A DNA stretch of 64,000 bases from Paludibacteraceae bacterium (GTDB taxonomy: Bacteria; Bacteroidota; Bacteroidia; Bacteroidales; Paludibacteraceae), in the NCBI GenBank assembly GCA_963621145.1, contig CAVFDI010000001.1, positions 79,066 to 143,065 on the forward strand. The letters run 5' to 3'. The translations under genes were made by a program, and so were the position numbers. Positions 2,824 through 25,519 of this stretch are shown here, in pieces. The notes under the pieces were generated by a model. That model was not told the DNA's origin, made no database searches, and saw nothing but the letters and a program-made list of their open reading frames with translations. Every line of letters begins with the position of its first letter. Within the stretch, counting starts at the first letter, position 1.

Positions 2824-2895
2824 ATGAAACGTTTCAGTTTGAGTTTTGCTGCTGTTGTTGTCTCGTTGTTGAGCATCGCTCCGCTCGCCAATGCG
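2824..2895 (+). other. Sec signal peptide of the giant protein
   Basis: MKRFSLSFAAVVVSLLSIAPLANA|Q has a basic N-region, a hydrophobic core and an A-x-A cleavage motif. Confidence 0.8.
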
Positions 2896-5800
2896 CAGAC
2901 AACATTTACTCCAATCGTAACACCAAGCAACGAGGTTTGCGCCAACGAAGGGGTTACTCTTTCACTTACTCCAAATGATGGCGGTACCTATCAGTACAAC
3001 TGGAAGTGGACCGATGGCACTGGGAATACGAACAACAGAAAGGATCAGCAGACGATTACCGACAATCCTTCGGCAACAACCACTTACGAGTGGTGGGCTT
3101 ACGATGAGTATAGCGACCTTGCAGGGCATGGCACGGTAAGTGTGAATGTAAATTCCGCGCCTACGGTAACAGCCGACCCATCGACCTACTACGTGGTTTC
3201 GGGCGGAAATGTTACACTCAAGGTTTCGGGTAATGCATTGGCAAAATCGTTCGAGTGGACTGCCGCCGATGGAACAGTACAGGCGTCGACCACCGACGAA
3301 CTCAATCTTACAAACGTTACTGAAGATACACAATATAGCGTTGTGGCCGTTGGAGCGAAAGGCTGCAAAAGCAAATCAGTTACTGTAAAAGTTGTTACAT
3401 TCGATGTAGAAGCGAGCAATAAAACGGTTTGCTATGGCGAACAAGTTACGCTTACTGCAAAATCGAATGGCGCTGCAAAATTCTATTGGGACGATGGTTT
3501 TGTAGGTCAAACTCACACCGTCACTCCTACTGGTACTCCTACAACAACCTACACTGTAACCATCAAAGACGCTAACGACGCTTTGATGGCAACGCAGCAG
3601 ATAGAGGTGAATGTGATTGCTAAACCTGTGGTTACTCTTACGCCAGACGAAACCAACATTTGCGCTGGCAAGACTGTAACCATTGTGGCTACAAACAACA
3701 CGGGACACAAGGGTACTTATACTTGGAGTGAAGCGAGTGTTAGTGGCAATTCGTTGACAGTTGAACCAACCATCACCACCACCTACTGGGTAAAATTTAA
3801 AGATGCTACCACGGATTGCGAGAGTGATAAGACATATTGCACCATCAATGTAAGCCAAACGGGTTCGGCCTCGATAAATGGAGCAAACTCTACTTGCGTG
3901 AATACGCCGATAGAACTCACCGTTTCGGGCGGCACGCCACAACGCTGGTTCGACGAGAATGGTATCGACATTACAATGCCATACACGCCTACTTCGGTTG
4001 GCACAAAAACCATCTATTGCATAGTGAAAGATGCCAATGGCTGCGAGGTGAAAGCACAGAAAACCATTACAGTTGCGCCTGCACTCTCGCCAACCATCTA
4101 TGGCAATTTCGAAATTTGCGTAGGCGAATCGGCCACACTGTCCGTTTCGACCGATGGCGCAACCTACTTGTGGAGCAACAACTCTACCGAACAAAGCATC
4201 ACTGTGAGCCCAACTTCGGATGCTTCGTATTGGGTTGATGTTACAAAAAATGGCTGCACAGCACGAAAGGAACAAAAAGTTACTGTCCATGCCAAACCGA
4301 CCATCAACATTACTGGCGGAACTACTATTTGCAAAGGTAGTACGGCGGTTGTTACAGCCGTAGCAACTGGCGGCAGTGGCTCATACACTTACGCTTGGAG
4401 CGACGAGCCTAGCACCATCAACGCAACATTGCGTGTGGCACCAACCACCACAACAACCTATAAAGTAACTGCTACCGATGCCGTTACTGGTTGCAGCAGC
4501 GAAAAATCGGTAACTATTGTTGTCGAAAGCAATACGCCACCAACCATTCTCGGCCCAACTACGGTTTGCAAGGGTGTAGACTTCACTCTTACCGCTTCCG
4601 ATGGTGACTCGTTTGCTTGGGACGACGACGCTAGCACCACCAAGGCAAGCATGACCGCTAGTTTGACTACCGATCGCACCTACACTCTGACGGTGAAGAA
4701 AGGCAGTTGCACCTACACCGTTCAGCACAAAGTGACGGTTGAAGATGGCCCAGTTGGCGAAATCACTGGCGAAACCAGCATTTGCAAGGGTGGCAGCACC
4801 AAGCTGACTGCACCTGCAGGCACATCGTACACTTGGAGCACTGGTTCTACCGAGCAATCAATCACTGTTACAACAGCTGGCACCTATTGGGTAGAAGTGA
4901 AGAAAGGCAACTGCACGCTGCACAAAGACATCACCATAACGGTGAACACGCCAACCGATGCCTCTATCAGCACTCCTGATGGATTGACTCTCTGCGCCAA
5001 CAACGAACTTGGACTTAAATTGGTGGCTTCGGAAGGCAAGGCCTATAAATGGAGTCCAACGGGCGAAACTTCGCAAGAGATCACTGCCAAACCAACATCA
5101 ACCACACTCTATTCGGTTACTGTAACCGACGCTCATGGTTGCGAATCGACTGCTTCTGTGCTGGTTACGGTTGTAGACGATCCTACCGAATTGGCGTTGA
5201 ACGCATCGAAAACTACAGTTTGCAAAGGTGAAAATGTGATTCTCACTGTGCTGAATGCTCCTGCGGGCAGCACTATCTCGTCGAACGATGGCAACGTAAC
5301 GGGCAATGTAGTTACTCACACCGCTTCTATTAGCAAGACAGTAACCGTGAAGGTAAAATCTGGTACATGCGAATATGTTTTGACAAAAGACATTACTGTG
5401 CTCGATGCTCCTTCGGGAACGATTACTGGCACGACATCGTTCTGCCAAGGCGGAAGTACTGTGCTGGCTGCACCTGTTGCTCCTGCTGGTCAGGTCTACA
5501 CCTATTTATGGAATACGGGCGAAACCTCGTCGACCATCACCGTATCGGCAGTGGGCGATTATTATGTAACGGTGTCGAACGGCTCGTGCGAGACAAAATT
5601 GCCAGCCGTAACTGTTACGGAGAATGTTCCTGTAGCACCAACCATCACGGCAAGTAAAACAACCATTTGCGCCGGCGAAACCATCACCCTTACGGCATCT
5701 AATTATGGTGCAATAACGGGTTGGAACGATGGCATACAAAATCTTGGCAATGCACAAGTTATATCGGTGTCGCCAACCACTACCACCAACTACGAACTTG

Positions 5801-8800
5801 TAGTAACCGATGCCAACGGTTGCGAGGCGAAGGCTTATCAGCAGATTGTGGTGAGTGCGCCTATCGATGTAACTCTTACGGGCGACAATTCGGTTTGCGA
5901 AGGTGGCAGCATCAGCGTAACCGTGAGCGGTGCGCCTAGCGGAAGCACCTATTCGTGGTCGACCGCTGGCACGTTGAGCAATGGCGATGCCACTCTCACA
6001 TTCACACCAAATGTGAACGATGCTGCAGTGTCGGTAACTGTAACTCCACCTGCTGCAAAAGGTTGCGCTGTTACTAAGACCTTCTCGTTCACTGTAACGC
6101 CTGCTCCTACGGGAAACATTACTGGTGTAACATCTATTTGCAACGGCGGTAGCACCACACTGTATGCTCCTGCTGGGCCTGCGGGAACGACCTACAAATG
6201 GAACAATGGCGCAACAACGCAATCGATTACCACACCTGCGCTGTTCAAAAATACCACCTATTCGGTCGACATTGTTTATCCAACGGGATGCACATTGTCG
6301 CCAACGCCTGTCATTGTGAAGATAAATGCTGCGCCAACTGGCACCATCACTGCTTCGAGCGATGTGGTTTGTGTGGGCGAACAGGTTGAACTCACTGTTA
6401 CTTCAGCAACCGCTACTGGCTGGAGTTGGAGCAACGGAACAACTGGCACGAACAAGGCTTACTACACACCAACCACCAGCGGCAATGTTCAATATTATGT
6501 CGACATTACTGCTAATGGCTGCACCGAGCGCGTCAGCAAAAACATCACAGTAGTTGATAAACCTGTGGCTGCCATCGATAAATCGGCATCGACCTCTTCG
6601 TTCTGCGAAGGCGAGCAGGTAACGGTTGTTGCTACGGGCGGTACGCGTTACGAATTGAACGGACAAACTAGCACCACTGGTGTATTCTTGCTCAACCCAA
6701 CAGCAACTACCACTTACACCATTTCGGTATTCAACGAAAATGGTTGCGAAAGTCTGGTAACGCACACCGTAACCAAACTCGCACCAACTGCCGAACCGAG
6801 CATTGTGGCGAATGGGTCGCTCGAACTTTGCGTAGGCGATAGTCGCACACTCTCGATCAATAATGGCACAGTAGTCAATTGGATCGACGGCACATCTACA
6901 CCGAATTATATATATACAGCAACTTCGGCCGACTTGGGAACGAAAACAATCACTGCCAAAGTGAACGATTTGAACGGATGCAGCAAGTCGGTAAGTTTGG
7001 AATTTGTTGTTACTGAAATTCCTTCGGTGGCAATCACCACAACTAACGAAACCATCTGCAAAGGCGAAAAAGTAACTTTGACTGCTACACCGGGCTTGGC
7101 TTCGTATTCGTGGGAATCGGGCGAAAAGACTCAAGAGATAATTGTATCGCCAAGCATCACCACTACTTATGTCGTAACAGGAACTAACGCTGGCGGCTGC
7201 TCGTCGACGGCAAAAATAACCATCAATGTGGCGACACCTGATGCAGTATCGATTTCTGGTCCTGTCACGGCTTGCCCAGGCGAGAGCGTAACTCTGAGTG
7301 CTGTGGGCGGCAAAGCATGGAACTGGTCGCACGGACTTGGCACAAGCAATACGGCAACATTCAACGCTGCTACCACTACTACATACACTTGCGAAATTAC
7401 CGATTCGAAAGGTTGCGTAACCAAAGTTTCGCACACGCTCACCGTGAAAGAGACGCCAACGCCAACCGTTTCGGGTAACTTGAAAGTGTGCAAAGGTTTG
7501 AATACCACACTTAGCGCAAGCACCGCCGATGCCTACGAATGGAAGAAGGGCGCAACCGTGCTCAGCACTGCATCGACATTGACATTGACCAATGTTCAAA
7601 GTTCGGAAGATTACACGTTGACCGTAACTGTGAACGGTTGCCAAGCAAGCACTTCGTTCCGTGTAACGGCTTGCGAAAATCCAACTGATGCTGCTATCGT
7701 TGGTAAAGATAAAGTTTGCGAAGGCGAATCGGTTACACTCACCGCTGTGGGCAATGGTACTTATTCGTGGAGCACTGGCGCAACAGGCAGCGAAATAACT
7801 GTAATGCCAACCGCAGCCAACCACATCTACCAACTGACTGTTACCGATATGAACGGTTGCACGCAGATGGTACAAAAGAATATCACCGTATCGCCAACAC
7901 CATCGGTAACCATCGATGGTCCGACCGAGGTTTGCGCTGGACAGTCGGTTACTCTCTCCGCTAGCGGTACTGGCACGTTCTTGTGGGACGATGGCACAAC
8001 TACTACCGCAACTCTCAAAGTAACGCCTAGCGTAACGCGCGCTTACAAAGTAACCCTTACCGATGGTTCGGGTTGCACCGTAACCGCATCGCACACTGTA
8101 ACTGTGAAGACTTTGACCGCTCCGAAAATTTCGGCTGCGAAGACCGATGTCTGCAAAGGCGACAAAGTAACTCTTACTGCCACGGGCGAAACAGGTTGCA
8201 CCTTCACTTGGCCCGATTTGGGAAGAACGGGTGCTAGTATAGAGACTTATCCAACCACAACTACCACCTATAAAGTTACGGCTACGAACGCCACTGGTTG
8301 CACTGCCGATGGCTACATCACCATCAATGTACACGAACAGCCTACGGTAGCAGTTACGGTTACTAAGGCGGCAATTTGCGCTGGCGAATCGACTACCATC
8401 ACTGTAACGGGCGGCACGGAATATACTTGCAATGGCGAGACGAATACTTCTGGTATTTTCAATGTTTCGCCAACCAAAACTACACCATATAATATAGTGG
8501 TGAAAAATTCGGCGGGTTGCACCACAACAACATCGCAAACCATCACCGTCAACGAATTGCCTACAATCAGTGTTTCGGGAGTTGATAAAGCTTGCGCTGG
8601 CGAACTCATTAGCCTTACGGCTACGGGCGGCACCGAATATTTGTGGAGCAATGGCATGACATCGCAAACTGCCACCTATACGGTTTCTGGCACAGGTACC
8701 ATGTCGGTTTGGGTGAAAGGTAAGAACGCTAGCGGCTGCTGGAGCGGTCAAGTGGCGCACAACATCACCATCAATGCAAAACCAACCATTGCCGTTTCGG

Positions 8801-11800
8801 GAACGATGGATATTTGTGTTGGCAAATCGACCACACTGACTGCTTCGGGTGCAAGCACGTACGTTTGGACATGGTTAGGCGGCTCGGCTATGGGCAACAC
8901 GCTGAATGTGAATCCAACCGCTACTACCGTTTATAAAGTCGTTGGCACCGATGCCAATGGTTGTGTAGGCGAAACTTCGGTTACCGTGAATGTTTATCCT
9001 GAACCTACGGTTACCATAACAGGTCCGACCGAGGTGTGCGAGGGTGGCGAGATTACTCTTACTGCCAACGGCACAGGCACATTCTTGTGGAACACTGGCG
9101 AATCGTCGCAGCAGATAAAAGTGTCGGCGGCTGGAACCTATTCGGTTACCCTTACGGGCGAAGGCGGTTGCATTTCGAAAGCCGAATATGTTGTGAAACA
9201 GAAGTCAATCATTGCCAAGATAAACGATGTGATAGATGGCGTATCGACCATTTGCGAAGGTAGCGACATCATTCTTACCGCATCGGGCGGCAATGCATAC
9301 AAGTGGGACAATGGTCTGGGAACGAACGCTACCGTTACTGTAAAACCGACCACATCGACCACATATTGGGTGGAAGTTACCGACGCTTCGGGTTGCAGCA
9401 AACGCGTAAGTCATACCGTGAAAGTAACGCCAAAACCAACGCTCACCGTTGTGGGTAACACCACCATTTGCTATGGCGAGACTGCCAACATTACCGTTTC
9501 GGGTGCGAAGACCTATGTTTGGAGCGATGGCATTGGCACTGGCGCAAGCATCAAAGTGTCGCCAGTATCGACATCGACCTATACCGTAACTGCTACCGAC
9601 GAAAATGGTTGCGTTGCTACGCAAGATGTTAAAATCGAAGTTATTCCAACGCCTGTGGCTTCTATCAAGGCTAGCAAAACCACAGTTTGCGAAGGCGAAT
9701 CGGTTACACTTACTGCTGATGGCGGCGACAACTATGTTTGGGGCGATGGCAGCACAGGGGCATCTATCACTGTTACGCCAACTGCGCCAAGCACCACTTA
9801 CAAAGTTACGGCTTACAAGAATGGTTGCGCAAGTGCAGAGGTTTCGCAAGTCATCACTGTGAATGCACTGCCAACGGTAACCATCAAACCATCGGCAACC
9901 ACCGTTTGCAAAGGCGAAGAGGTTACACTTACTGCTTCGGGTGCAACATCGTACGAATGGAGCACTGGCGAAAAGACGCAAGCCATCACCGTTACGGTGA
10001 ATAGCGATGCCACCTATTCGGTAATTGGTACACAAAATGGCTGCCAAGGCACTGCCTCGCAGAGCATTAAAGTGGCTACACCGCCTACTATCAACATTTC
10101 GAGCAACACTGGAAAACTCTATATCTGCAATGGCGAAAGCATTACGCTGACCGCTTCGGGTGCAAACACCTACACTTGGTCTGGCGGATTGGGCAACACT
10201 GCTTCTATCACCGTTACGCCAACCGCTGACACTGAATACGAGGTCGAAGGCGTTTCGGCAAATGGATGCAAGGCTAAAGAGAAAGTCAAAGTAATTGTTT
10301 ACGACAAACCAAATCCAAAAATTACTGGCAATACCGAAATTTGCGAAGGCGACTACACCATTCTGACTGCCGACGATGCTAACGCCGTGGCTTGGGAGTG
10401 GAACACAGGTGCTAAGACTAAGAGCATCAATGCTTATCAGGCTGGAACTTACACCGTTACGGTAACTGGCAAAGGCGGTTGCACATCTACTGCTACGGCT
10501 ATTGTCACTTACTTAACGCCTATCAATGGTTCGATTAGCGGACCAGAAATTGTTTGCAAAGGCGAAAATGTAACTCTTACGGCTAGTGGTGGTAAGACCT
10601 ATCAATGGGATGAAAACACTGCCGAAAGCGAGAAACTTGTTCTTACCAACATACAAGTGAGTGGCACGCACTGGGTTACCATTACTGGTGCCAATGGCTG
10701 CACGCAGCGTTTGGGTCATTCTATCATTGTGAACGAACCTCCAACGCTCTCTATCACTGGTAATCAAACCTTCTGCGAAGGCGGAAGCACCACTCTTACC
10801 GCAGTCGGTACGGGCGATGTGCTGTGGAACACAGGAAGTACCAATCGCTCTATCACCGTATCTGCCGAAGGTGACTATACGGCTAAATTGACCGATGCTA
10901 ATGGCTGCTCGACATCACAAACTGTGCATGTAACGCGTAATCCATTGCCAGTGGCCATAATCACTGGTCCTACAAAGACTTGCGAGGGCGAACCTGTTAC
11001 ACTTAGTGTTTCGGGTGCCGAAAGCTACACTTGGAGCACAGGCGCTACGGGTCAAAGCATTACGGTTCAGCCTACTACGACCACAACCTACACCGTTACA
11101 CCAAAGACTGGACTCTGCATTGGCGATCCCGCTTCGTTCACCATAACTGTGAACAAGAAACCTGTAATCACCTTCAGTGGCGATTTGGAGATTTGTGCTG
11201 GCACTAAAGCCGTGATCACTGCCGATGCCGATGGCGCCGATCAGTATGTTTGGGGCGATGGATCGACGGGCGCGACATACACCACCGCTGTGCTCGAGTC
11301 GAACACCACATTTACCGTAACTGCTACAAATACCACTACGAATTGCTCGGCACAAAAACAGGTTACCGTCATTGTCAATCCGAAACCGGAAATCTCCATT
11401 TCGGGTACGACATCGGTTTGCGCTGGCGAATCGACCAAACTGACGGCTTCGCCTAGTGGCGCTACTTACGCATGGAGTAATGGTTCGACCAGTCGCACCG
11501 CAACCTTTAGCAATCTGATTAGCGACGAAGACTATTGGGTTGATGTAACCTTGGCTAACGGCTGCACCAATCGTCTCAATGGCACTATCAAAGTTTATGA
11601 TATGCCTGCTGCCGAAATCACTACAAACACTGGTACGAACACCGTTTGCCGTGGCGAAAGTATTACGCTTACTGCTTCGGGCGGAAACACCTATTTGTGG
11701 ACGCACGATGGCACGCGTAGCGCATCTGTTACCGTTACACCAACAAAAGATTCAAAATATACCGTGAAAGTGATTGGCGATGGCAACTGCTCGTCGACGG

Positions 11801-17800: not shown

Positions 17801-20800
17801 AGGCTTGGTTGCAGGCAACAAATACCGAAGGTAGTTGGAGCACGATGTACTACACCTACGGCTGGTTGAACCATGGCGATACGCTGACGCACGACGACTA
17901 CACTCTGAAACTGAAGCCGACTAAGACCGACAACTACACCTTCTACATCATCGACAAGGCCTCGGGTTGCCGCCGCACCATCGACACCACCGTTGTGGTT
18001 CTGCCGATACCGCGCGTCGAACTGAGCGACCCTGGCACATTGCTGTGCGAAGGCGAAATGTACACCCTCGACCTCAGCAGCGAACTGCCGCTGACCGATG
18101 CCAACATCACTTGGACTAAGACGGATAGTTACAGCGTAACGTTGGATACGAAGAGCGACATCGTTACCTATAGCGATAAACCAACGGCTGGCGACTACAC
18201 CTACACTGTAGTTGTAGCCAATGCCAACAAGTGCGACACTACCATTGTTCGCAAATTGAAAGTCAGCAGCGTGCCGCAACCTTACATCTTGATTGGCGAT
18301 GGCACTGGCGACACCATTTGCGAAGGCGATCAAGTGAAGTTGATTGGTCAAAACATGAAGAGCAACTACAACTTTACCGATTATCCTGTAGCATGGATTG
18401 TTGGCAACGATACACTTCAGAAAGACCAGACTCAACTGCTGCACAAGCCACAAAAGACCACAACCTACAAATTTGTGGTTACCAATGCGGCTACTGGTTG
18501 CTTCATAGCTGTCGACACCACCATATTTGTGAAGGCACGCCCAGCAACCAAACTGAATGTGAAATTGCCTAGTGGCTCTACCGATAACACCATCTGCAAA
18601 GGCGAATCTATCAGCATGCAGATAGTCGATACCGTGGCTAACAACACCGACGGACTGCATGTTCAGTGGAAACGCAATGGCGTGATTGTGACTGAATGGG
18701 CCAACAAGTTCGACATTGTGAACTACACGCCCGACGATGACGAAAGTTATGTGATAACAGTCGACAATGGTCGCTGCCCGATAGTGCTGAACTACGACCT
18801 AAAAGTGAACTATCTGCCCGATCCTACGGTTGAACTGCGCTCTGGTTCGCGTGTGAATTGCGCTGGTACGCGTGTCGATATTGGCGGCGCACAAAATCAA
18901 GATCTTGATTCGCGCTATGTTTACGAATGGACAACAGTGCCTGTGGGCGAAGTTATCGCAAATCCGCACGACAAGGACATTGCGGTTTATCCCTACACCA
19001 CAACCACCTATGTCTACACAGTAACCGATACGCAGACAGGTTGCTCGCGCTCCGACAGCATTGCTATCACCGTAAATCAACGGCCTAAAGTAACGCTCGA
19101 GGTTGTTTATCCAGAAGGCACCGAGGGCAATCTTATCTGCCAGACCGAGCCAGTAACGCTGCGCCTGCGTGGCGAAACCGACAGTTTGAAGACTCTGTGG
19201 TTTGTTAACCAAATTCCGCAAGCCGAATGGGCCGACAAACTCTCGATTACCGATGCGCCAAGCAACGAACGCAACGACTACACTGTGAAGGTTTACAACG
19301 CTAATTGCGAACTGCAAATAGACACAACTATTTTGGTAAGCAAAGTGGAAAATCCGAAGATCTACAGCGTAGGCGACATCACCACCATTTGCGAAGGCAC
19401 TAAAGTGGAATTGAAAGCGCTAGATCCGCAAATAACGACGATGGTAAATGGTAAGAATATCAATGACTATCGCTGGACGAGTAGCAATCCGAAGGAAGTT
19501 CTCGAAAATCCGACGAACCAAAACATTCTTGTTTACCCGAAGACGACTACAACCTACACCTACACCACTACCAACTTGCTCACAGGCTGCTCGCGTTTCG
19601 ACACGCTGCGCATTGTGGTAAATCTGAAACCAGAGGCTAAATTCGAGGTGGCTTACGGTGCAAACATCACTGCCGATAGTACCATTTGCGCTGGCGATCC
19701 TGTTACTCTGCGTGTAACTAGCAACGATTCGGGTAACCTCTACACCAAATGGTATGCCAACGAACACGAAGTGCCCGATTGGGAGAATAAACTCACCATT
19801 ACCGATGTTTGCCCCGATAGCACGGTGATCTATCGTGTAGCGGTAAGCAACGACTACTGCGAGGCCGATCGTCTAGAGCAGACTGTGAAAGTGAAGTTCG
19901 TTCCAAATCCAACGATTGACATACTTCGTGGCGGCTATACCATGTGCGAAGGCCAACAATTGCTGTTGGTTGCTAAAGCGGCTCAGCGCCAAGACCTTGG
20001 ATTCAAGTATCAGTGGTTGTCGAGCTCGCCGAACGACCAAATCAGCGACTCTACAGGTCAATCGCTCACCGTTTATCCGACAGGTATCACCACTTATACC
20101 TATGTGATTACCGATCCAGCAACGGGTTGCTCGCGCACGGGTCAAATTCAGATAAATGTGAACAAGAAACCTGATGTTCGCTTGGTTACTGGCAGCAACA
20201 CGCTGGCTAAGGATACGCTCATCTGTGGTGGTAATCCTGTGACATTGCGCGTCGATGGCGACTTGAAGAATCTGACTTTCGCTTGGTACAAGAACGACCT
20301 TGTACAGCCTGGAACTTCGTCGACCTACACCGATACGCCTGAATCGAATGCTAAGTACTATGTGATTGTTACCGATACAACCACGGGTTGCGAAACTAGT
20401 CAGGGCGATTTGGCTGTGGATGTCGAGGTGAACATCATGCCTGTTCCGACCATCGAACTTGTGGGCGCTGGAGTTACCAACCATGTTTGCAAAGGCACAA
20501 CCATCACGTTGCAGGCCAAAGAAGACCAGGCGCACGATGTGAATAAGTATCGTTATCAATGGTCGGGTGGCGGTAAGTCGAGCCTTGGTAGCACACAATC
20601 TATCAATGTGAAACCTGATGTAACGACCACCTACATGTATACTGTTCGTAATCTGATTACAGGTTGCACGCGCAGTGTCGATACCACCATCTATGTTTAC
20701 GATGTGCCGAAGGTAACGCTCTCGTCGTCGATTGAACAAGGCTACGAGGATAGTTACTGCGCAGGCGATCCTGTTACACTGAGTGTTACTGCTGGCGAAG

Positions 20801-23800
20801 GCACCAATGCCGACGATCTGCAATACACATGGCTGCGCAACAACGAGGTGATTGCTGGTGCTACTACCAACACACTCATCGACTACCCAATGGGTACTGC
20901 CGACAATGTGAACGACACCATCTACACCTACGAGGTTGTGGTTCAGAACAAATCGAGCCATTGCCAAGCCGATCCAACTGGTCTGAAGTACTCGCTCACG
21001 GTGAAACCGCTGCCTGTACCAACCATTACGGCATTCGACAACAATGGCGATGTGATAGAGAAGAACCAGACGGTTTGTCCCGATCGCGATATTCGTCTGC
21101 AAGGTACGCACTTGTCGGGTAAATTGTTCCGCTACACTTGGTATTCGCAGAACCAAACCGATCCCGACATCACCGCTACCGACAAACCGAACGAGGTTTG
21201 GGTATCGCCGTCGCAAACTACCACCTACACCCTCGAAATCGAGAATTTGGAGACTGGTTGCAAGCGCACCACCACTCACACCATCAGTGTATTGGCTACG
21301 CCGAAGATTAAGATAATCAGCACTGCCAAACAGGACGATGGCAAATCGGTTGCTTGCGTAAACGATCCCGACATCACGCTGAAAGTGGTTCAGGCCGATG
21401 GCTCCGAGATTGACGACTTCAAGTTCAACATTACTTGGCTCGACGATCTGGGCAACGACCTTGGTGGCACGGCCGACATCACACTCACTGCCGATGCAGT
21501 CTCGACACACACCTACACCGTTCAGGTTGAGAATGTGCCAGGTGCTACAGGCCTGAAGTGCCCAGTTGTGGCTACTCATGTTGTCGATATTCAAACGGCT
21601 CCGACCGACATTACTATCGATGCTTACACCAACGATGGTCGCACGCTGCTCACCGAGAAAGAGTATGTATGCGCTGGCGAACCTGTGTTGCTCGAGGCTA
21701 AGAAACAAGACAAGATGACCTACGAATGGCGCGACGAGTGGGGCACGGTTTACACTGGCGACAACAACTCGCGTACATTCACTGTAAATCCGCAGAAAAC
21801 GACAGTCTACACCGTGAAAGTTACCAACATGGGCGGTTGCTCGTACGAGGTATCGCGTAAGATTTTGGTTAATCCTAAACCTACGGTAACCATAAGCGGG
21901 CCTACTTCGTTCTGTCTCGAAGAGGTGGGCAAGTCGTTCACTCTGAAGGCCACTTCGAACCCATATTCGAAGAACTACACCACCATTGTTTGGACCTACG
22001 AGGTAGATGGCGGCACCAACACCTTCGAGGGCCAGAGCATTGAATATGCTCCGCAAAAGGCTGGTACTTACAAGTTCACCGTGGTGGCACGTCACGAGTC
22101 GAACAGCACAATTTGCGAAAGCGATCCTGTTACCTACCAAGTGATAGTGGCTGGCGTTCCGCAAGTTGGTACCAAGGACTTGAAAGTGGTTTCGTCGCTC
22201 GACTCTACGGCCAATGCTTGCGTGAATACGCGCTTCGAGATTGAAGCCACGCCTGGCTACACCAAGTATGTGTTCGGTACTACCGATAGAGTGGTTTATA
22301 CACCAAAACAAGAGAGCGATAAGAACACATTCAACGATGTGGTGAAATCGGAAGGCTCGTGGATTTACTATTGCGACTTCTATAATGCTGCTGGTTGCTA
22401 CAGCCGTCAGGAAATCGACATCGAGGTTAATCCAATGCCTGATAATGTTACGATAACGCCAACTGCGGTGAATGGTGTTCTTAACAACTATAAGTCGGAG
22501 GGTGAACAGCCCGAGGTTGTTGTTTGCGAAGGCACTTCGTTGAAACTCAATGCAAATGCGACGGGTAAAACCAACAGTTATTCGTGGATCGATTCCGATG
22601 GCAAGACTCACCCATCGCAGCAGGAGATTAGCGTAACGCCGTCGCACACAACCACTTACACAGTGTCGGTAACTAACTTGAGCGGTTGCTTGGTAACAAG
22701 TCGCTTCACTGTGAAAGTTGTGCCGATGGATAAACTCACGCTCACAGCCAACAACACGAACGACTCGCTGGCTATCTGCGCCGGCAGCAAAGACAAAGTC
22801 ACGCTGCGTGTAACTGGCTCGTCGGCAAGCACTTACGACTATCGCTGCCCATCGACTGGTGCTTACTACTTGTCGAAACCTGCAAGCATTCAGATTCCTG
22901 CTCCGCAATCGGACGAAGTGTGGTTTGTCTACGCAAGTTCGAGCGCAAACAGCAGTTATGGCACAAGTTGCCAGAGCGAAGCGAGTGTCAAGATTCATGT
23001 TTTGAATAATCCTGACAACACGAAAGGCTCTATCAAGGTGAATGGCGGCGAATCGTTCACGGTTTGCGCTGGCTCTACCGTAACGCTCACTGGCGATCAT
23101 GCCGATGCCGTTACCTACTTGTGGAGCACTGGCGAAGTGAAGCCGTCAATCCAAGTGCTGATGCCGAACTACGAGAAGGATACTACCATCACATTCTGGG
23201 CAATAGGCCGCAACGCACTTGGCTGCGACAATACGCAAGACACCATGAAGTTGCAACTGTTCGTTCGTATGCAACCTGAGCCTAAGATTGTGAGCGAAAC
23301 CATCTGCTACGAGCAGCAACCGCTCCGTCTCGAGGCTGGCGACAAAGTGCTTACCTATCGCTGGTACGACGAGAATGGCAACGAGGTATCGCGCAAGTAC
23401 TATTGCGAGATTAAGCACGATACGGCAGGTATCTATAACTACAAACTGACTGCTCGCAACGATGCTGGCTGCGAAACCACCATCACCGTTTCGGTAACAG
23501 TTCGTCCGTTCGAGGCCAACATCTCGGGTCTGACCTATCTCTGCTCAGGCAATTCTACCAAACTTTGGGTCGATGGTTGCTCGTTGGCGGCTGGTTATCA
23601 GTTCCGCTGGACATTCGCAGGCGAGATATTCAGCACTGTCGACACGGTTACCGTATCGCGCCTCGGCACCTATGGAGTAGAAGTAACAACGCCGTGGCTG
23701 ACTAGCGCAGTTGGTACCATCGAGGTTCAGCAGAGCGAAACGCCGAATGTGAAGTTCACAACGCCGCAACCTGCTTGCCAAGGCGATCGCTACGCCATGT

Positions 23801-24495
23801 TGCCGTACAAGGTTACTTCGGGCATGCCTACGCAGTACACCATCATTCCTGTGGGCAATTCGCTTACGGCTGGATTCGATAGCGTGAGCGAGGCGGCTCT
23901 TGGGTCGGAATACATCTTCGTAACTCTGCCTAACCAAGTGGCTTCGGGCAACTACGAGGTTGTGATTCGCCTGACTAACGCTAATGGTTGCGGCAGCGCC
24001 GACTATCGCGTGAAGTTCTATGTGGGTCAAGACCTGATAGAAGAGGCGTGGTCCGATGTGCTGATGTGTAAAGACTTGAACCATGAATTTACCTCGTATC
24101 AGTGGTATCGCAATGGCGACCGCATAACGGGTGCAAACTTGCAATACTATTCTGAGACGGGCGGCTTCAATGGCGACTACTACGTAGTGGCTTACCGCAG
24201 CGATAGTTCGGAGGTTACCTCCTGCTCGAAGTCGGTTACTACGAAACAGAATGTCGGCGTATCGCCTAACCCAGTGCAGCGCTATAGCAAGTTGCAGGTC
24301 GAGGCTCCGTTTACCATCGACGAGCTGTTTGGCGCACGCCTCGAGGTGGTCGATGCTATCGGACGCACCATCTATGTGGTCGATAAGGTTGAAGCCGAAA
24401 ATTCGCTCTTTGTCAGCTACCCAGCGGGCGTCTACATGGTTCGCATAAGCTTGACCAACGGCGAAGTATTCACCGAGAAGTTTGTGGTACAATAA
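2824..24495 (+). CDS. giant (7,223 aa) secreted repeat protein: signal peptide, roughly 90 two-cysteine Ig-like modules and a T9SS type-A C-terminal sorting domain; probable surface adhesin
   Basis: Uninterrupted 21,672-nt ORF. Modules recur with C-x-G...L-T-A-x-G...Y-x-W...T-T-T-Y-x-V...G-C. The C-terminus reads SPNPVQRYSKLQVE...GVYMVRISLTNGEVFTEKFVVQ. The protein is Thr/Gly/Val/Ser-rich. Confidence 0.9.
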   Translation: MKRFSLSFAAVVVSLLSIAPLANAQTTFTPIVTPSNEVCANEGVTLSLTPNDGGTYQYNWKWTDGTGNTNNRKDQQTITDNPSATTTYEWWAYDEYSDLAGHGTVSVNVNSAPTVTADPSTYYVVSGGNVTLKVSGNALAKSFEWTAADGTVQASTTDELNLTNVTEDTQYSVVAVGAKGCKSKSVTVKVVTFDVEASNKTVCYGEQVTLTAKSNGAAKFYWDDGFVGQTHTVTPTGTPTTTYTVTIKDANDALMATQQIEVNVIAKPVVTLTPDETNICAGKTVTIVATNNTGHKGTYTWSEASVSGNSLTVEPTITTTYWVKFKDATTDCESDKTYCTINVSQTGSASINGANSTCVNTPIELTVSGGTPQRWFDENGIDITMPYTPTSVGTKTIYCIVKDANGCEVKAQKTITVAPALSPTIYGNFEICVGESATLSVSTDGATYLWSNNSTEQSITVSPTSDASYWVDVTKNGCTARKEQKVTVHAKPTINITGGTTICKGSTAVVTAVATGGSGSYTYAWSDEPSTINATLRVAPTTTTTYKVTATDAVTGCSSEKSVTIVVESNTPPTILGPTTVCKGVDFTLTASDGDSFAWDDDASTTKASMTASLTTDRTYTLTVKKGSCTYTVQHKVTVEDGPVGEITGETSICKGGSTKLTAPAGTSYTWSTGSTEQSITVTTAGTYWVEVKKGNCTLHKDITITVNTPTDASISTPDGLTLCANNELGLKLVASEGKAYKWSPTGETSQEITAKPTSTTLYSVTVTDAHGCESTASVLVTVVDDPTELALNASKTTVCKGENVILTVLNAPAGSTISSNDGNVTGNVVTHTASISKTVTVKVKSGTCEYVLTKDITVLDAPSGTITGTTSFCQGGSTVLAAPVAPAGQVYTYLWNTGETSSTITVSAVGDYYVTVSNGSCETKLPAVTVTENVPVAPTITASKTTICAGETITLTASNYGAITGWNDGIQNLGNAQVISVSPTTTTNYELVVTDANGCEAKAYQQIVVSAPIDVTLTGDNSVCEGGSISVTVSGAPSGSTYSWSTAGTLSNGDATLTFTPNVNDAAVSVTVTPPAAKGCAVTKTFSFTVTPAPTGNITGVTSICNGGSTTLYAPAGPAGTTYKWNNGATTQSITTPALFKNTTYSVDIVYPTGCTLSPTPVIVKINAAPTGTITASSDVVCVGEQVELTVTSATATGWSWSNGTTGTNKAYYTPTTSGNVQYYVDITANGCTERVSKNITVVDKPVAAIDKSASTSSFCEGEQVTVVATGGTRYELNGQTSTTGVFLLNPTATTTYTISVFNENGCESLVTHTVTKLAPTAEPSIVANGSLELCVGDSRTLSINNGTVVNWIDGTSTPNYIYTATSADLGTKTITAKVNDLNGCSKSVSLEFVVTEIPSVAITTTNETICKGEKVTLTATPGLASYSWESGEKTQEIIVSPSITTTYVVTGTNAGGCSSTAKITINVATPDAVSISGPVTACPGESVTLSAVGGKAWNWSHGLGTSNTATFNAATTTTYTCEITDSKGCVTKVSHTLTVKETPTPTVSGNLKVCKGLNTTLSASTADAYEWKKGATVLSTASTLTLTNVQSSEDYTLTVTVNGCQASTSFRVTACENPTDAAIVGKDKVCEGESVTLTAVGNGTYSWSTGATGSEITVMPTAANHIYQLTVTDMNGCTQMVQKNITVSPTPSVTIDGPTEVCAGQSVTLSASGTGTFLWDDGTTTTATLKVTPSVTRAYKVTLTDGSGCTVTASHTVTVKTLTAPKISAAKTDVCKGDKVTLTATGETGCTFTWPDLGRTGASIETYPTTTTTYKVTATNATGCTADGYITINVHEQPTVAVTVTKAAICAGESTTITVTGGTEYTCNGETNTSGIFNVSPTKTTPYNIVVKNSAGCTTTTSQTITVNELPTISVSGVDKACAGELISLTATGGTEYLWSNGMTSQTATYTVSGTGTMSVWVKGKNASGCWSGQVAHNITINAKPTIAVSGTMDICVGKSTTLTASGASTYVWTWLGGSAMGNTLNVNPTATTVYKVVGTDANGCVGETSVTVNVYPEPTVTITGPTEVCEGGEITLTANGTGTFLWNTGESSQQIKVSAAGTYSVTLTGEGGCISKAEYVVKQKSIIAKINDVIDGVSTICEGSDIILTASGGNAYKWDNGLGTNATVTVKPTTSTTYWVEVTDASGCSKRVSHTVKVTPKPTLTVVGNTTICYGETANITVSGAKTYVWSDGIGTGASIKVSPVSTSTYTVTATDENGCVATQDVKIEVIPTPVASIKASKTTVCEGESVTLTADGGDNYVWGDGSTGASITVTPTAPSTTYKVTAYKNGCASAEVSQVITVNALPTVTIKPSATTVCKGEEVTLTASGATSYEWSTGEKTQAITVTVNSDATYSVIGTQNGCQGTASQSIKVATPPTINISSNTGKLYICNGESITLTASGANTYTWSGGLGNTASITVTPTADTEYEVEGVSANGCKAKEKVKVIVYDKPNPKITGNTEICEGDYTILTADDANAVAWEWNTGAKTKSINAYQAGTYTVTVTGKGGCTSTATAIVTYLTPINGSISGPEIVCKGENVTLTASGGKTYQWDENTAESEKLVLTNIQVSGTHWVTITGANGCTQRLGHSIIVNEPPTLSITGNQTFCEGGSTTLTAVGTGDVLWNTGSTNRSITVSAEGDYTAKLTDANGCSTSQTVHVTRNPLPVAIITGPTKTCEGEPVTLSVSGAESYTWSTGATGQSITVQPTTTTTYTVTPKTGLCIGDPASFTITVNKKPVITFSGDLEICAGTKAVITADADGADQYVWGDGSTGATYTTAVLESNTTFTVTATNTTTNCSAQKQVTVIVNPKPEISISGTTSVCAGESTKLTASPSGATYAWSNGSTSRTATFSNLISDEDYWVDVTLANGCTNRLNGTIKVYDMPAAEITTNTGTNTVCRGESITLTASGGNTYLWTHDGTRSASVTVTPTKDSKYTVKVIGDGNCSSTASINIQVLDVPEAAIVADKTTVCEGDNVTLSANDGVKWQWYKGNAEIAGATGQHYTINSASYGTTTYKVVVENAAGCSTTASYALAVSRKPDATISGDLDICSGTSTTLTAPLSDSYLWSTGETTRSITVTPSATTDYSVTVTVGDCSATGVATVNVNPLPMVTLTPDDPTVCVGNSTILRAGTGFKYYKWSTGQEGPNLSSIGISPTENTVYTVTVTDAKGCTGVAQTTIAVTQVAAPTITVLSGSETVCAGEEVVLQSSAAKEYQWSSNVEVSQQSEQTVVVYPTQTSVYTVTTTNKAGCQSSKDITINVTKLPTPTITGADNMCKGDMTGVELTASSDVPGATFIWSTGDNTANIIVKPSKTTTYRVWASNGKCKNSTPAEFTLKVNDAPAAAITGKSAICLGESVTLEATGGVTYLWQNIEGSAKTLSKITVSPTQTTKYVCTVTDDHGCTKDASFEVVVNPLPKPSITGKNKICRGGSTTLAATGGNSYLWSTGETTKEIIVNPAYTTTYTVEASNANGCTSEATFTVEVVQEPKVHIDGPTVSCSGTPVTLTVTPDDSRTYTCIWKHNNSTKLAEAVNPTSSTTYEVEVFDGECSKILTHTVTVNKLEDPKIDGPAQICLGESTTLSVANVPNNFVSYQWSTGETTQSIEVKPAVVGMSTYTVTCTDANECTSEATIDIVVSALPDATITASTDVLCEGDNSVTLTASGAGISGKYNWYEDELATVLLAGGEGTPTYTFNDLTYTKKIYVVAISKLGCKSAPKEYELVVTPKPNPTITSSVPANVICTGGTVELSVSDPDPDVTFVWSDGTEGAHMTATAPGEYRVTATNVAGCTQDASITLIEEALPDAKITPSIIAGTGAGVAEENIARICAGTRLKLTATPQATPTLTYTYKWNTGSIASEIMVNPTASTTYSVVITSASGCEQTATIEVKVNEFVTIEGKTEVCAGMPYVLNAIGNNLSYYEWTRNGEKLPKYDGVASIDCVDSVPAGQMSAEVTYGVKCIYDNNCETDTTITVKVYAKPSDLTINGIGGVDAMDSVCVESAKQLSVIPTGGSSLTGATYKWTGSGITDETAATQTITPTTVGQETYSCQITMPGGCDTTVNIILKAVALPELAACPDTTICFGTEAQLYLTAKNNCPDGTTITWTSDNGGGGASGDVVRVAPTTTTTYTVTAKTPAPLGCSTTQTVTVTVIPQQQPTVTPSPALICLDAAGISEDDLNLTTEDTDSEGRTYKAYKWYAEDDPTTIIGTSNAITVPKANITATRTYVVEVTTQEGCTALGSVEVPVSEKPSVSIKGETQVCEGKSLVLQAESPINVTRYEWTTNDDPNTVFATTQSVTVWPTTTVNTYYLTVYNDKGCRFEVNPGHNVTILKAPKPQIAADHNPICEGDDVILTASDLNSGTCTVVWDDNSTNPVRKIIGLTSTTTYNVTLTNENGCVEQVEFTVDVNPLPKLKITGNTQVCVGDSVLLSVEDANGVDNKYSWTGGAWREATDKGSVNNSKVWVYPTNVVDSTEYCVTSVDVNSCNSKQVCHKILAFAKPIAMINGKQMATDTICVGQSLILEATGGSKFKWSTNAESQQITTPIYNSVNTYIFWVDVYNEANCVQRDSIWVKVMPKPNAYIESVSPATQVCEGTTVTMRASDAPSGSRYTYAWTNNTGETIENANQQEISVTPTITTAYKLVITDVETKCEKEILQTIYIDPKAKVNFTATPDTICEGDVFSIEIEGDVSGQAIAWEQLKNGTAQDVSSWAGMTSIVDSPTASEYIYRATLTNKVTGCLTVLERRLVVVRVPKAGIQIVNKTTSTVCQGDPVELQAWNDEGKYSTAENVQFVWMIGDDTIAPLNQRKIIVYPRTTTTYTVVMQSLVNGCTSSRDTTINVLEIPHVNIVEPDNQVICEDEEISFTLEGVLAEYGVAWHKYDRGTEVASWAKNGVTTVTDKPTKSEYDYKVVISNPLGCDTTIVRHLRVNSVPRPGIKFPGAKQDTICEGEEAWLQATNTEGSWSTMYYTYGWLNHGDTLTHDDYTLKLKPTKTDNYTFYIIDKASGCRRTIDTTVVVLPIPRVELSDPGTLLCEGEMYTLDLSSELPLTDANITWTKTDSYSVTLDTKSDIVTYSDKPTAGDYTYTVVVANANKCDTTIVRKLKVSSVPQPYILIGDGTGDTICEGDQVKLIGQNMKSNYNFTDYPVAWIVGNDTLQKDQTQLLHKPQKTTTYKFVVTNAATGCFIAVDTTIFVKARPATKLNVKLPSGSTDNTICKGESISMQIVDTVANNTDGLHVQWKRNGVIVTEWANKFDIVNYTPDDDESYVITVDNGRCPIVLNYDLKVNYLPDPTVELRSGSRVNCAGTRVDIGGAQNQDLDSRYVYEWTTVPVGEVIANPHDKDIAVYPYTTTTYVYTVTDTQTGCSRSDSIAITVNQRPKVTLEVVYPEGTEGNLICQTEPVTLRLRGETDSLKTLWFVNQIPQAEWADKLSITDAPSNERNDYTVKVYNANCELQIDTTILVSKVENPKIYSVGDITTICEGTKVELKALDPQITTMVNGKNINDYRWTSSNPKEVLENPTNQNILVYPKTTTTYTYTTTNLLTGCSRFDTLRIVVNLKPEAKFEVAYGANITADSTICAGDPVTLRVTSNDSGNLYTKWYANEHEVPDWENKLTITDVCPDSTVIYRVAVSNDYCEADRLEQTVKVKFVPNPTIDILRGGYTMCEGQQLLLVAKAAQRQDLGFKYQWLSSSPNDQISDSTGQSLTVYPTGITTYTYVITDPATGCSRTGQIQINVNKKPDVRLVTGSNTLAKDTLICGGNPVTLRVDGDLKNLTFAWYKNDLVQPGTSSTYTDTPESNAKYYVIVTDTTTGCETSQGDLAVDVEVNIMPVPTIELVGAGVTNHVCKGTTITLQAKEDQAHDVNKYRYQWSGGGKSSLGSTQSINVKPDVTTTYMYTVRNLITGCTRSVDTTIYVYDVPKVTLSSSIEQGYEDSYCAGDPVTLSVTAGEGTNADDLQYTWLRNNEVIAGATTNTLIDYPMGTADNVNDTIYTYEVVVQNKSSHCQADPTGLKYSLTVKPLPVPTITAFDNNGDVIEKNQTVCPDRDIRLQGTHLSGKLFRYTWYSQNQTDPDITATDKPNEVWVSPSQTTTYTLEIENLETGCKRTTTHTISVLATPKIKIISTAKQDDGKSVACVNDPDITLKVVQADGSEIDDFKFNITWLDDLGNDLGGTADITLTADAVSTHTYTVQVENVPGATGLKCPVVATHVVDIQTAPTDITIDAYTNDGRTLLTEKEYVCAGEPVLLEAKKQDKMTYEWRDEWGTVYTGDNNSRTFTVNPQKTTVYTVKVTNMGGCSYEVSRKILVNPKPTVTISGPTSFCLEEVGKSFTLKATSNPYSKNYTTIVWTYEVDGGTNTFEGQSIEYAPQKAGTYKFTVVARHESNSTICESDPVTYQVIVAGVPQVGTKDLKVVSSLDSTANACVNTRFEIEATPGYTKYVFGTTDRVVYTPKQESDKNTFNDVVKSEGSWIYYCDFYNAAGCYSRQEIDIEVNPMPDNVTITPTAVNGVLNNYKSEGEQPEVVVCEGTSLKLNANATGKTNSYSWIDSDGKTHPSQQEISVTPSHTTTYTVSVTNLSGCLVTSRFTVKVVPMDKLTLTANNTNDSLAICAGSKDKVTLRVTGSSASTYDYRCPSTGAYYLSKPASIQIPAPQSDEVWFVYASSSANSSYGTSCQSEASVKIHVLNNPDNTKGSIKVNGGESFTVCAGSTVTLTGDHADAVTYLWSTGEVKPSIQVLMPNYEKDTTITFWAIGRNALGCDNTQDTMKLQLFVRMQPEPKIVSETICYEQQPLRLEAGDKVLTYRWYDENGNEVSRKYYCEIKHDTAGIYNYKLTARNDAGCETTITVSVTVRPFEANISGLTYLCSGNSTKLWVDGCSLAAGYQFRWTFAGEIFSTVDTVTVSRLGTYGVEVTTPWLTSAVGTIEVQQSETPNVKFTTPQPACQGDRYAMLPYKVTSGMPTQYTIIPVGNSLTAGFDSVSEAALGSEYIFVTLPNQVASGNYEVVIRLTNANGCGSADYRVKFYVGQDLIEEAWSDVLMCKDLNHEFTSYQWYRNGDRITGANLQYYSETGGFNGDYYVVAYRSDSSEVTSCSKSVTTKQNVGVSPNPVQRYSKLQVEAPFTIDELFGARLEVVDAIGRTIYVVDKVEAENSLFVSYPAGVYMVRISLTNGEVFTEKFVVQ
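2900..23740 (+). repeat. array of diverged ~75-80-aa (~230-240 nt) Ig-like modules; boundaries approximate
   Basis: Protein-level periodicity read from the translation. Copies are strongly diverged at the nucleotide level, and I noticed no long exact DNA repeats. Confidence 0.8.
16939..21890 (+). repeat. supra-repeat zone of about nine alternating A/B module pairs
   Basis: A type: ICEGD..W....W..K..I.D.P....Y.Y.V.V.N..C...L.V..VP.P, without T-T-T-Y. B type: C.G..V.L.A...Y.W....I.VYP.TTTY.Y...D..TGC.R.D. They alternate from KAKVNFTATPDTICEGD onward. Confidence 0.7.
24253..24492 (+). other. T9SS type-A C-terminal sorting domain (Por_Secre_tail-like)
   Basis: VGVSPNPVQRYSKLQVEAPFTIDELFGARLEVVDAIGRTIYVV...YPAGVYMVRISLTNGEVFTEKFVVQ has the typical xPNP start, G-x-Y-hydrophobic strand and K-hydrophobic terminal strand. 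Confidence 0.8.
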
Positions 24496-24521: not shown

Positions 24522-25427
24522 ATGAAAATTCAGAAGAAAAGAATGGCGCTTGCCGCTTGCCTATTGGTGGCGGCAAGCATAGCCGCTCCAGCCAAAACAC
24601 CAGCCTACATCGACCTTGAATTGGGCGGCGGTGCAGTGATGATGCCTTATAGCAATACTGATTATGGTATTTTTTCGGGCGGTAATTTCGATTTAGGAGC
24701 AAAATACTCGTTGCTTTTCCACCCGCGCAAAGGTTGGGGCGCAAGTTTTGGATTGAATTTTAGCACTTTTCAGGGAACGAAGGTGCTGAATGCAAGCCTC
24801 ACCTCGCCTGCTATCGACGACCAAGGACGCAGTTATGTGCTTTTTGCCGATGTGGCCAACTGGACCGAGCGTCAGCAGCAGTATTCCATCTCCATTCCAA
24901 TTAGCATCTTCTATCAGCATCAGCGTCCGCGTCACTCGGGCTGGTTCACATCGTTTGGTGTGAAACTCTATCTGCCGTTCTACACCGATTATCGCGTTAC
25001 GCAGGGCGACATTGTTACTAAGGGCTTCTACACGCAGTGGGGTGGCACTTACGACTACAATGGCGAACAGGGAGTGCTGATACAGTCGCTGCCGCAGCAC
25101 GGTTTCGGACAATACAACACGCTGCTGCCCAAAGGCGAAAATAAGGCCAATTTCTTGCTAACTGGTCAGGTGATGTTTGGCGCCATTCTGCGTCTCGACA
25201 AGAAAAACGAGATGTATTTGGCACTCTACATCGAGCATGGCTTCTACGACATGTACATCAATCGCGATGCGAAGGGCTTGTTCTCAACGATTCAGAGCCT
25301 CAATTCGTATCAGTACAACGGCTACTATTCGAGCCTTGCTACCAAAACCATACCAGCAATGTTTGGCTTGAAAGTGGGTTGGCGCTTCAAAGACGTGCAC
25401 GATTGTAACTGCATACGCCAACAGTAA
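24522..25427 (+). CDS. outer-membrane beta-barrel protein (porin-family-like), probably co-transcribed with the giant gene
   Basis: Signal peptide MKIQKKRMALAACLLVAASIAAPA, alternating amphipathic strands and a near-terminal GLKVGWRF strand. It starts 26 nt after the giant-gene stop, and a terminator follows. Confidence 0.7.
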   Translation: MKIQKKRMALAACLLVAASIAAPAKTPAYIDLELGGGAVMMPYSNTDYGIFSGGNFDLGAKYSLLFHPRKGWGASFGLNFSTFQGTKVLNASLTSPAIDDQGRSYVLFADVANWTERQQQYSISIPISIFYQHQRPRHSGWFTSFGVKLYLPFYTDYRVTQGDIVTKGFYTQWGGTYDYNGEQGVLIQSLPQHGFGQYNTLLPKGENKANFLLTGQVMFGAILRLDKKNEMYLALYIEHGFYDMYINRDAKGLFSTIQSLNSYQYNGYYSSLATKTIPAMFGLKVGWRFKDVHDCNCIRQQ

Positions 25428-25483: not shown

Positions 25484-25519
25484 AATATTTGGCATTTGTC
25501 TATTCCGCTGGACTCATTA

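Follow-up and report, generated by a model that had tools for sequence, protein, structure and literature searches.

The window analysed here is a stretch of 64,000 nt from the genome of an uncultured Paludibacteraceae bacterium. Its longest ORF, as found by ORF listing and translation, is a gene of 21.7 kb that is real and intact (Table 1); a first-pass annotation, made from the letters of the DNA, had described a single uninterrupted frame of this position and length, and the translation bears this out. The product, referred to below as the giant protein, is rich in threonine (16%), valine (10%), and serine (8%) and contains 194 cysteines. Read by eye, its N-terminus has the classical n-h-c region of a signal peptide, ending in A-N-A followed by Q. 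The NCBI annotation of one orthologue, P0002, is 20 codons longer (MLITCRECNFSAENKEKHPKPDI-MKRF...), and since this extension lies upstream of the signal peptide, translation more plausibly begins with the ATG at 2824. The gene is preceded by a candidate promoter box, for which the TANNTTTG pattern finds no further match on the + strand between 11252 and 31276 and, hence, none between the giant gene and the next gene, which encodes a protein of 301 aa; the gap between the two contains neither a promoter box nor a terminator. After this second gene, a frame of 171 aa (25472-25987, +) begins with a TTG; it is of low complexity, rich in Cys and Arg, has no Pfam match, and is probably not a gene.

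Table 1. Features of the giant gene, its product, and the gene downstream (positions in the window; residues of the giant protein).
Feature	Position	Strand	Residues	Remarks
Candidate Bacteroidota -7 promoter box, TAAATTTG	2736..2743	+		81 nt upstream of the start codon; TANNTTTG pattern, consensus match only
Giant ORF	2824..24495	+	7,223 aa plus stop codon	No internal stop
Predicted Sec signal peptide	2824..2895	+	1-24	MKRFSLSFAAVVVSLLSIAPLANA, then Gln (QTT); by eye from the translation
Putative distal tip, modules 1-4	2908..3852	+		Fastest-evolving part of the fibre
Modules 1-52	2908..14622	+	29-3933	Canonical Ig_7, ~72 aa; self-built HMM and Pfam PF19081
Modules 53-86	14629..23730	+	3936-6969	Longer, more divergent; 38 of 39 sequons
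Modules 61-80, alternating A/B pairs	16690..22149	+		Identity 0.31 at offset 2 versus 0.21 at offset 1
Two divergent beta-sandwich domains	23743..24255	+	6974-7064, 7081-7144	Self-built profile; all-beta in AlphaFold
T9SS type A C-terminal sorting domain (CTD)	24259..24492	+	7146-7223	TIGR04183
Gene of the 301-aa partner	24522..25427	+		26 nt downstream of the giant gene's stop codon
N-terminal region, sequons			1-3600	0 sequons versus ~19 expected; 8 D[ST] dipeptides versus 39 expected, 0 of 8 followed by a permissive residue
C-terminal half, sequons				39 sequons versus ~19 expected; 51 D[ST] dipeptides, 39 of 51 followed by a permissive residue

A profile that was started from a one-module seed and iterated on the giant protein itself converged on 88 domains. 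Eighty-six of them are modules (i-Evalue 1e-23 to 1.3e-7) that tile residues 29-6969 with gaps of mostly 3-12 aa, and these are followed by two divergent domains and a 79-aa tail, a count that agrees with the roughly 90 modules estimated in the first-pass annotation. The module length of 75-80 aa given there was right as to the scale of the repeat and slightly too long in detail, the median being 73 aa (range 64-91 aa); the period is ~72 aa in modules 1-51, and the length rises to 71-91 aa in modules 53-86. The signature that had been picked out by eye (C-x-G, Y-x-W, and a late G-C) is recovered in the consensus, ..tiC.GesvTLtA.g..Y.W.....iTV.Pt.ttTYtVtvtna.GC....ti.V, where the two cysteines are present in 98% (Cys1) and 93% (Cys2) of the modules and the Trp and the Tyr in 92% and 89%, respectively. 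Ahead of residue 6970, the giant protein has no non-repeat stretch of more than 25 aa, and no ligand-binding domain is recognisable in it.

Identity between modules averages 27% and reaches 57% at most; the modules are old copies. At the DNA level, Tandem Repeats Finder detected no module-length array, and the direct-repeat families are merely 60-70% alike over 30-75 nt. The low identity and the lack of an array uphold the initial impression that the gene has no long exact nucleotide repeats and has undergone no recent expansion. They also bear on the possibility that we are dealing with a decaying pseudogene or with an assembly artefact, in which the collapse or expansion of repeats would have produced the length. 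Mis-assembly is a common risk with repetitive genes, and exact duplicates in two relatives (P0005 and P0006, described below) could be artefacts. However, no exact internal repeat in the window's copy exceeds 12 aa. Moreover, intact genes with the same module order occur in a 96-97% identical relative (P0002, L001, L002) and in eight further MAG assemblies, and the agreement of these independent assemblies argues against collapse or mis-assembly, which the first-pass annotation had also thought unlikely. The giant gene is carried by all four genomes of the genus, as well as by two other genera of the family. An origin in mis-assembly or decay is, therefore, scarcely credible.

The relatives were retrieved with the C-terminal 584 aa of the giant protein as the query. 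Eleven of them are full-length (5,921-7,665 aa), all from Paludibacteraceae MAGs, a taxon that the related loci confirm, with C-terminal regions that are 57-96% identical to that of the giant protein, except in the most distant one, P0012 (40%). Nine of the 12 proteins (the window's and eight of the 11 relatives) have 86 well-scored modules, that is, 86 + 2 domains, while one has 91 and two have 74. In a best-hit and dynamic-programming alignment, the order of the modules is strictly colinear, all differences being indels of whole modules, and this holds even for an orthologue with a C-terminal region that is down to 59% identical (P0010). P0009 and P0010 are without modules 10-12 and 18-20 and have six extra modules, so that the net change is zero; P0011 has lost 12 modules in addition to changes of this type; P0005 has gained six modules and lost six; and P0006 has gained six. 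A constant module number despite such indels suggests, in this small sample, that there is selection on the length or the register of the rod. The compensation in P0005 has to be treated with caution, since the six modules gained are an exact duplicate and possibly an artefact.

The exact internal duplications just mentioned span 451 aa in P0005 (residues 1476-2370) and 365 aa in P0006 (residues 1551-2357). The two proteins come from different species, and in both it is the six modules 20-25 that are duplicated; the modules at the boundaries, 20 and 26, begin in a similar way (VSISGPTTAC.GE). One explanation may be a recombination hot spot or very recent events; another may be a recurrent assembly loop or other artefact. 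A further oddity in the databases concerns five loci (L002-L005 and L012), where orthologues that are 58-96% identical were deposited as Flexilinea sp., Segatella copri, Erysipelotrichaceae, Leyella stercorea, and Acutalibacteraceae "cleanbin" assemblies; these look like errors of binning or labelling.

The modules belong to Pfam family PF19081 (Ig_7, "Ig-like domain CHU_C associated"), which matches the two halves of the giant protein with E-values of 1e-119 and 1e-88; in bits, the N-terminal half scores 391 (19 stretches) and the C-terminal half 292 (eight stretches), against a gathering threshold of 27.3. In total, 27 stretches, corresponding to about one third of the 86 modules, pass this threshold individually, and a search of the genome with PF19081 found 22 places above it. 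PKD-type models match a few of the C-terminal modules, and the SprB repeat, PF13573, gives one weak match on the giant protein, at 17.1 bits versus a cut-off of 28. A likeness to PKD-like, SprB, and CHU-type repeats had, thus, been correctly perceived at the outset, although the modules could not then be assigned by eye to a named family, which they now are. The first-pass annotation had also reckoned with a match to an already known adhesin family, and this is in part what was found, since the modules fall in PF19081 and have their closest characterised relative in the stem of GhpA (see below). The name Ig_7 refers to an association with the type B (CHU_C) tail, whereas the giant protein has a type A tail; in keeping with the latter, NCBI names the orthologues "T9SS type A sorting domain-containing protein". 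A literature search on PF19081/Ig_7 and on giant T9SS proteins of Paludibacteraceae found nothing on this family.

The type A tail, which had been proposed from its motifs, was checked with TIGR04183 (Por_Secre_tail, curated cut-off of 23 bits): against the C-terminal half, this model scores 26.0 bits, and with the final 340 aa as the query the score is 31.4 bits, model positions 1-72 being aligned with the extreme C-terminus. The type B model, TIGR04131, has no match in the giant protein, and the genome's single type B tail that exceeds the cut-off lies on contig C4. Together with the two divergent domains, the CTD forms a C-terminal cassette that is common to many shorter T9SS cargo proteins; across the family, the cassette alone matches cargo frames of ~330-4,400 aa. 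In an AlphaFold model of the C-terminal 340 aa, which is of moderate confidence overall (pLDDT 73.6), the first divergent domain has a pLDDT of 82-91 and the second one of 56-76.

The host genome (1.95 Mb, 99% complete) encodes SprA/Sov (2885 bits), the PorU sortase (1163 bits), and PorP, the last of these in one operon with the GldK, GldL, GldM, and GldN domains (porP-gldK-gldL-gldM-gldN, C4:10431-18153, +), and it has 38 matches to the type A CTD. With SprA, PorU, this operon, and the type A tails all encoded, the secretion route is present. Judging from these parts, the giant protein would cross into the periplasm via the Sec system, its type A CTD would then direct it to the SprA translocon, and PorU would cut off the CTD and fix the protein to the surface. 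The first-pass reading of a long-maintained, T9SS-sorted, extended fibre fits well with a CTD above the cut-off, the T9SS genes, the Ig_7 modules, and the colinear orthologues.

Downstream of the porP-gldKLMN operon lies a gene whose 603-aa product combines a beta-barrel with an OmpA domain and is a candidate PorE-like anchor. Ten frames of at least 1,300 aa with a T9SS tail, on contigs C1, C6, C9, C12, C14, C41, C73, C74, and C82, make up ~32,100 codons (96 kb), or ~5% of the genome; the 1,311-aa frame on C41 is PorU itself. Outside the window there is a second and even larger frame, of 9,381 aa (C6:3544-31686, -); its modules resemble Ig_7, it ends in the cassette of the giant protein, and its match to the type A CTD is weak.

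The closest characterised relative of the modules is the stem of GhpA from Aureispira sp. CCB-QB1 (PDB 9flp, 9fls, 9flu-9fly, and 9g8b; Lien et al., bioRxiv 10.1101/2024.01.29.577165). In GhpA, the signal peptide is followed by an N-terminal hook module of 1,400 aa, a stem of 52 Ig-like repeats, and finally the T9SS tail, and the protein assembles into a 240-nm heptameric hollow rod in which disulfides link neighbouring Ig-like domains and O-glycans are found on all domains; downstream of ghpA lie the PorP-like ghpB and the PorE-like ghpC (10.1101/2024.01.29.577165). A profile of three-module segments of the giant protein scores 1412 bits over at least 22 stretches of full-length GhpA (5,898 aa). 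An AlphaFold model of modules 46-48, for which the alignment was built from the giant protein's own triplets (pLDDT 96.6, pTM 0.79), superposes on six GhpA stem fragments with all domains at once (TMq 0.72-0.78, rmsd ~4.2 A), while the next best PDB target reaches a TM of 0.43.

This relationship also bears on the cysteines. The first-pass annotation had proposed one disulfide per module, and about one per module is indeed the likely number; the partners, however, are probably Cys1 of module n and Cys2 of module n+1, such that the bridges would link adjacent modules rather than close within each of them. Three lines of evidence point in this direction: the strand order, the joint absence of cysteines, and the precedent of GhpA. 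Firstly, the strand order in the model is A/A'-B-C-(C')-E-F-G, by which Cys1 would lie at the turn from A' to B, and Cys2, in the loop between F and G, would be at the other end of the domain. Secondly, in 11 of the 12 proteins (the window's and 10 of the 11 relatives), module 1 has Cys1 only, module 2 has Cys2 only, and module 3 has Cys1 only. This pattern fits a pairing of n with n+1, where junctions 1-2 and 3-4 are bonded and junction 2-3 is without both partners, and where no cysteine is left unpaired; a pairing within modules, on the other hand, leaves three conserved orphan cysteines in modules 1-3. Likewise, P0005 has zero cysteine mismatches under the inter-module scheme versus six under the intra-module one. 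Thirdly, GhpA has a bond between Cys2988 and Cys3140 (10.1101/2024.01.29.577165), a span of 152 residues, which is about one repeat period plus one Cys1-to-Cys2 distance. The intra-module bond was rejected as the likelier topology on these three grounds.

Another regularity of the giant protein lies in the distribution of potential glycosylation sites. The O-glycosylation sequon of Bacteroidota, as reported by Fletcher et al. in 2009 and Coyne et al. in 2013, is D-(S/T)-(A/I/L/V/M/T). We counted the pattern D[ST][AILVMT] against the expectation from composition, a count that concerns the motif alone and not glycosylation itself. Modules 1-52 contain zero such sequons, with ~19 expected, and the scarcity recurs in all 12 proteins, which have 0-1 sequon per N-terminal half. 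In the proximal 35 modules, sequons are enriched about 2-fold, with one to three in each of modules 53-87, and recur at two sites, one immediately preceding Cys1 (D-T-I-C) and the other where the last strand begins (D-T-T-I). The depletion might have been a by-product of the Ig_7 module type; this explanation was rejected because sequons are enriched 2-4-fold over most of the length of other Ig_7 giants (P0014-P0018 and P0020) and 3-4-fold along the whole length of the host's 9,381-aa protein (147 versus ~43 expected). The Coyne 2013 study is among those cited in the GhpA paper (10.1101/2024.01.29.577165).

The evolution of the modules is polarised too. The mean identity of modules 1-4 to five colinear orthologues is 59%, compared with 75% for all modules, and with respect to the closest strain, it is 75% compared with 93%; the most conserved modules are 49-60. 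The N-terminus would be the distal tip of the fibre, and the fast-evolving modules 1-4 would be its likely ligand-contacting end. Taken together, the sequons and the rates of change may be read as two zones, a distal one that is bare and has a variable tip for binding (modules 1-52, which avoid sequons) and a proximal one protected by glycans (modules 53-87, which would probably be coated with glycans).

The homology with the GhpA stem and the near-identical geometry of three domains in the two proteins raise the possibility that the giant protein forms an appendage of the grappling-hook type, in which several protomers (seven in GhpA) would lie side by side in a rigid, hollow tube, here without a hook. 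A bundle of this sort would demand that protomers stay in register, which could explain why nine of the 12 proteins have 86 modules and why most of the indels are multiples of three (3, 3, 6, 6, 6, and 12 in P0005, P0006, and P0009-P0011), by which the register is kept; the indels of P0012, however, also include some of two, four, and nine modules. The sequon-free distal half could likewise provide glycan-free faces for lateral packing, but in the assembled heptamer of GhpA, glycans occur on all Ig-like domains (10.1101/2024.01.29.577165), and packing, therefore, needs no bare surfaces. SprB, which also consists of Ig-like repeats, has been suggested by the GhpA authors to be monomeric (10.1101/2024.01.29.577165), and the giant protein contains no testable sequence signal of oligomerisation. 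A bundle is, on balance, rather unlikely.

The gene directly downstream encodes a protein that probably has a signal peptide and an outer-membrane beta-barrel, as predicted from its sequence. This 301-aa protein has no match in Pfam or NCBIfam even at E<=10 (PF11751 included). Its identification as a member of the PorP/SprF family was considered and rejected, there being no HMM match at E<=10 and a probability of 1-3% in an hhalign comparison with the PorP alignment. Its gene lies directly downstream of the match to the C-terminus of the fibre in 28 of 37 related loci, which comprise every Bacteroidales/Paludibacteraceae locus and include some in which nothing but the cassette is shared, at 23-31% identity; the partner is also better conserved than the C-terminal region of the fibre (~82% versus 59% identity). 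Longer members of the partner family have a C-terminal OmpA domain, and these OmpA fusions may be a functional analogue of GhpC, the PorE homologue of the grappling hook. Three paralogues are found elsewhere in the genome (C37:14095-16374, -; C47:3245-5095, -; and C110:2-883, +), two of them fused to OmpA; the one on C37, a barrel-OmpA fusion, comes directly after the gene for a 648-aa type A cargo with the C-terminal cassette of the giant protein.

Type A cargo is normally anchored via anionic LPS and needs no private barrel. Gene order suggests that the 301-aa protein could be an anchor or an assembly partner on which the cassette docks, as SprF would be for SprB, and GhpB and GhpC for GhpA, in which case the last two domains and the CTD would form a cassette genetically coupled to this outer-membrane protein. 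An alternative is that the giant protein is released, as a fibre of the matrix or biofilm or as a coat of outer-membrane vesicles, and that the downstream gene is unrelated to its display. Cargo with a type A CTD can be shed, and the 301-aa protein is without the OmpA peptidoglycan-binding domain of its relatives. However, the adjacency of the cassette and the barrel gene persists across Bacteroidales even where the C-termini of the fibres are at 23-31% identity, the gap of 26 nt has no promoter box, and the PorU sortase is present. We consider release to be improbable and display with the help of the 301-aa protein to be the better reading.

The best explanation, which we regard as likely, is that the giant gene encodes a cargo of the T9SS and that this cargo is displayed on the cell surface as a long, stiff fibre, with adhesion over a long range as its most probable role. 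The rod would be a linear chain of 86 Ig_7 modules of the GhpA-stem type plus the two divergent beta-sandwich domains, and with 3.5-4 nm per Ig domain, its length would be roughly 0.3 micrometre. The cysteine staples from module to module would brace it covalently. The default function for such a fibre would be the adhesion of an anaerobe with a small genome to particles, other cells, or host surfaces. There is no hook domain in the giant protein, the T6SS sheath gene VipB/TssC (PF05943) has no match in the 99% complete genome, and the best GldJ-like frame, a GldJ/GldK-like protein of 488 aa, matches in three pieces that sum to ~297 bits versus a cut-off of 458; it is for these reasons that long-range adhesion is the most likely function.

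The last result is also relevant to the idea of a mobile adhesin that, like SprB, would be driven along the surface and power gliding motility. A giant Ig-like T9SS cargo followed by an outer-membrane-protein gene does recall sprB-sprF, and there is the one weak SprB-repeat match. That match is, however, well below its cut-off (17.1 bits versus 28), TIGR04131 is absent from the giant protein, the partner does not belong to PorP/SprF (hhalign probability of 3%), and the GldJ-like frame falls short of its own cut-off. A role in gliding is, consequently, very improbable, and we retain adhesion by a fixed fibre.

A bolder proposal, which we advance only tentatively and think rather doubtful as a whole, is that the giant protein and the 301-aa protein constitute a distinct two-gene surface-appendage system of anaerobic Bacteroidales. 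In such a system, the length of a hookless rod of the GhpA type would be under selection (86 beads, with gains and losses cancelling out); glycans would be confined to its proximal half, the distal half being bare and ending in a hypervariable tip; and the rod would be mounted via its cassette on a dedicated barrel of a family that is absent from Pfam and NCBIfam and fused to OmpA in relatives. If true, T9SS cargo would have a third mode of anchoring in addition to A-LPS (type A) and docking on PorP/SprF (type B).

Giant T9SS fibres are among the largest genes of Bacteroidota. To our knowledge, only SprB and GhpA have been studied so far. The gene described here is unremarkable within a family that is itself very common, and the class to which its product belongs is likewise very common in Bacteroidota and already covered by Pfam, by the NCBI annotation, and by the 2024 structure. 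What is new is the inter-module staples proposed here, the conservation of length, the sequon boundary, the variability of the tip, and a partner family that had not been described. The set of orthologues turns these features into predictions that can be tested across the class: staples from domain to domain, a constant length despite the gain and loss of modules, a sharp boundary between a sequon-free distal and a sequon-rich proximal region, and a type A cargo with an outer-membrane partner of its own. Their confirmation would help explain how uncultured Paludibacteraceae of the gut and of digesters attach to substrates or partners and how T9SS cargo is anchored.

In comparison with known systems, the giant protein shares with RgpB, a type A cargo of Porphyromonas gingivalis, a CTD recognised by TIGR04183, although the direct likeness between the two CTDs is weak. 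In contrast to RgpB, it is devoid of an enzyme domain, its structural repeats extend over more than 7,000 aa, and a private outer-membrane partner is encoded downstream of it but not of cargo of the RgpB type. SprB of Flavobacterium johnsoniae (6,497 aa) is likewise a giant, repetitive T9SS surface filament with the gene for an outer-membrane partner (SprF) next to its own; the PF13573 repeats, type B CTD, and PorP/SprF-family partner of SprB, however, have no clear counterpart here.

The resemblance to GhpA goes further. Both proteins have a Sec signal peptide (predicted here), a long stem of homologous two-cysteine Ig-like repeats, a C-terminal T9SS tail, and a surface rich in Ser and Thr, and both are followed directly by a gene for an outer-membrane protein, which in our case is a predicted barrel. 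The differences are that the stem has 86 modules in the giant protein versus 52 in GhpA; that the partners of GhpA are GhpB (a PorP homologue) and GhpC (a PorE homologue), whereas the giant gene has a non-PorP partner and no gene with a PorE/OmpA domain after it; that the sequons of the giant protein are proximal only, while the glycans of GhpA are on all domains; and that the one host is an anaerobic member of the Paludibacteraceae with a genome of 1.95 Mb and the other a marine filamentous predator. Moreover, the hook/adhesin module of GhpA (residues 26-1402) is absent from the giant protein, where the first Ig module begins at residue 29, which means that the two have the stem in common but not the hook. 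With no hook, no T6SS sheath gene, and no GldJ above the cut-off, the giant protein is neither a strict grappling hook nor a gliding adhesin of the SprB type, and so is best described as a hookless fibre of the GhpA type.
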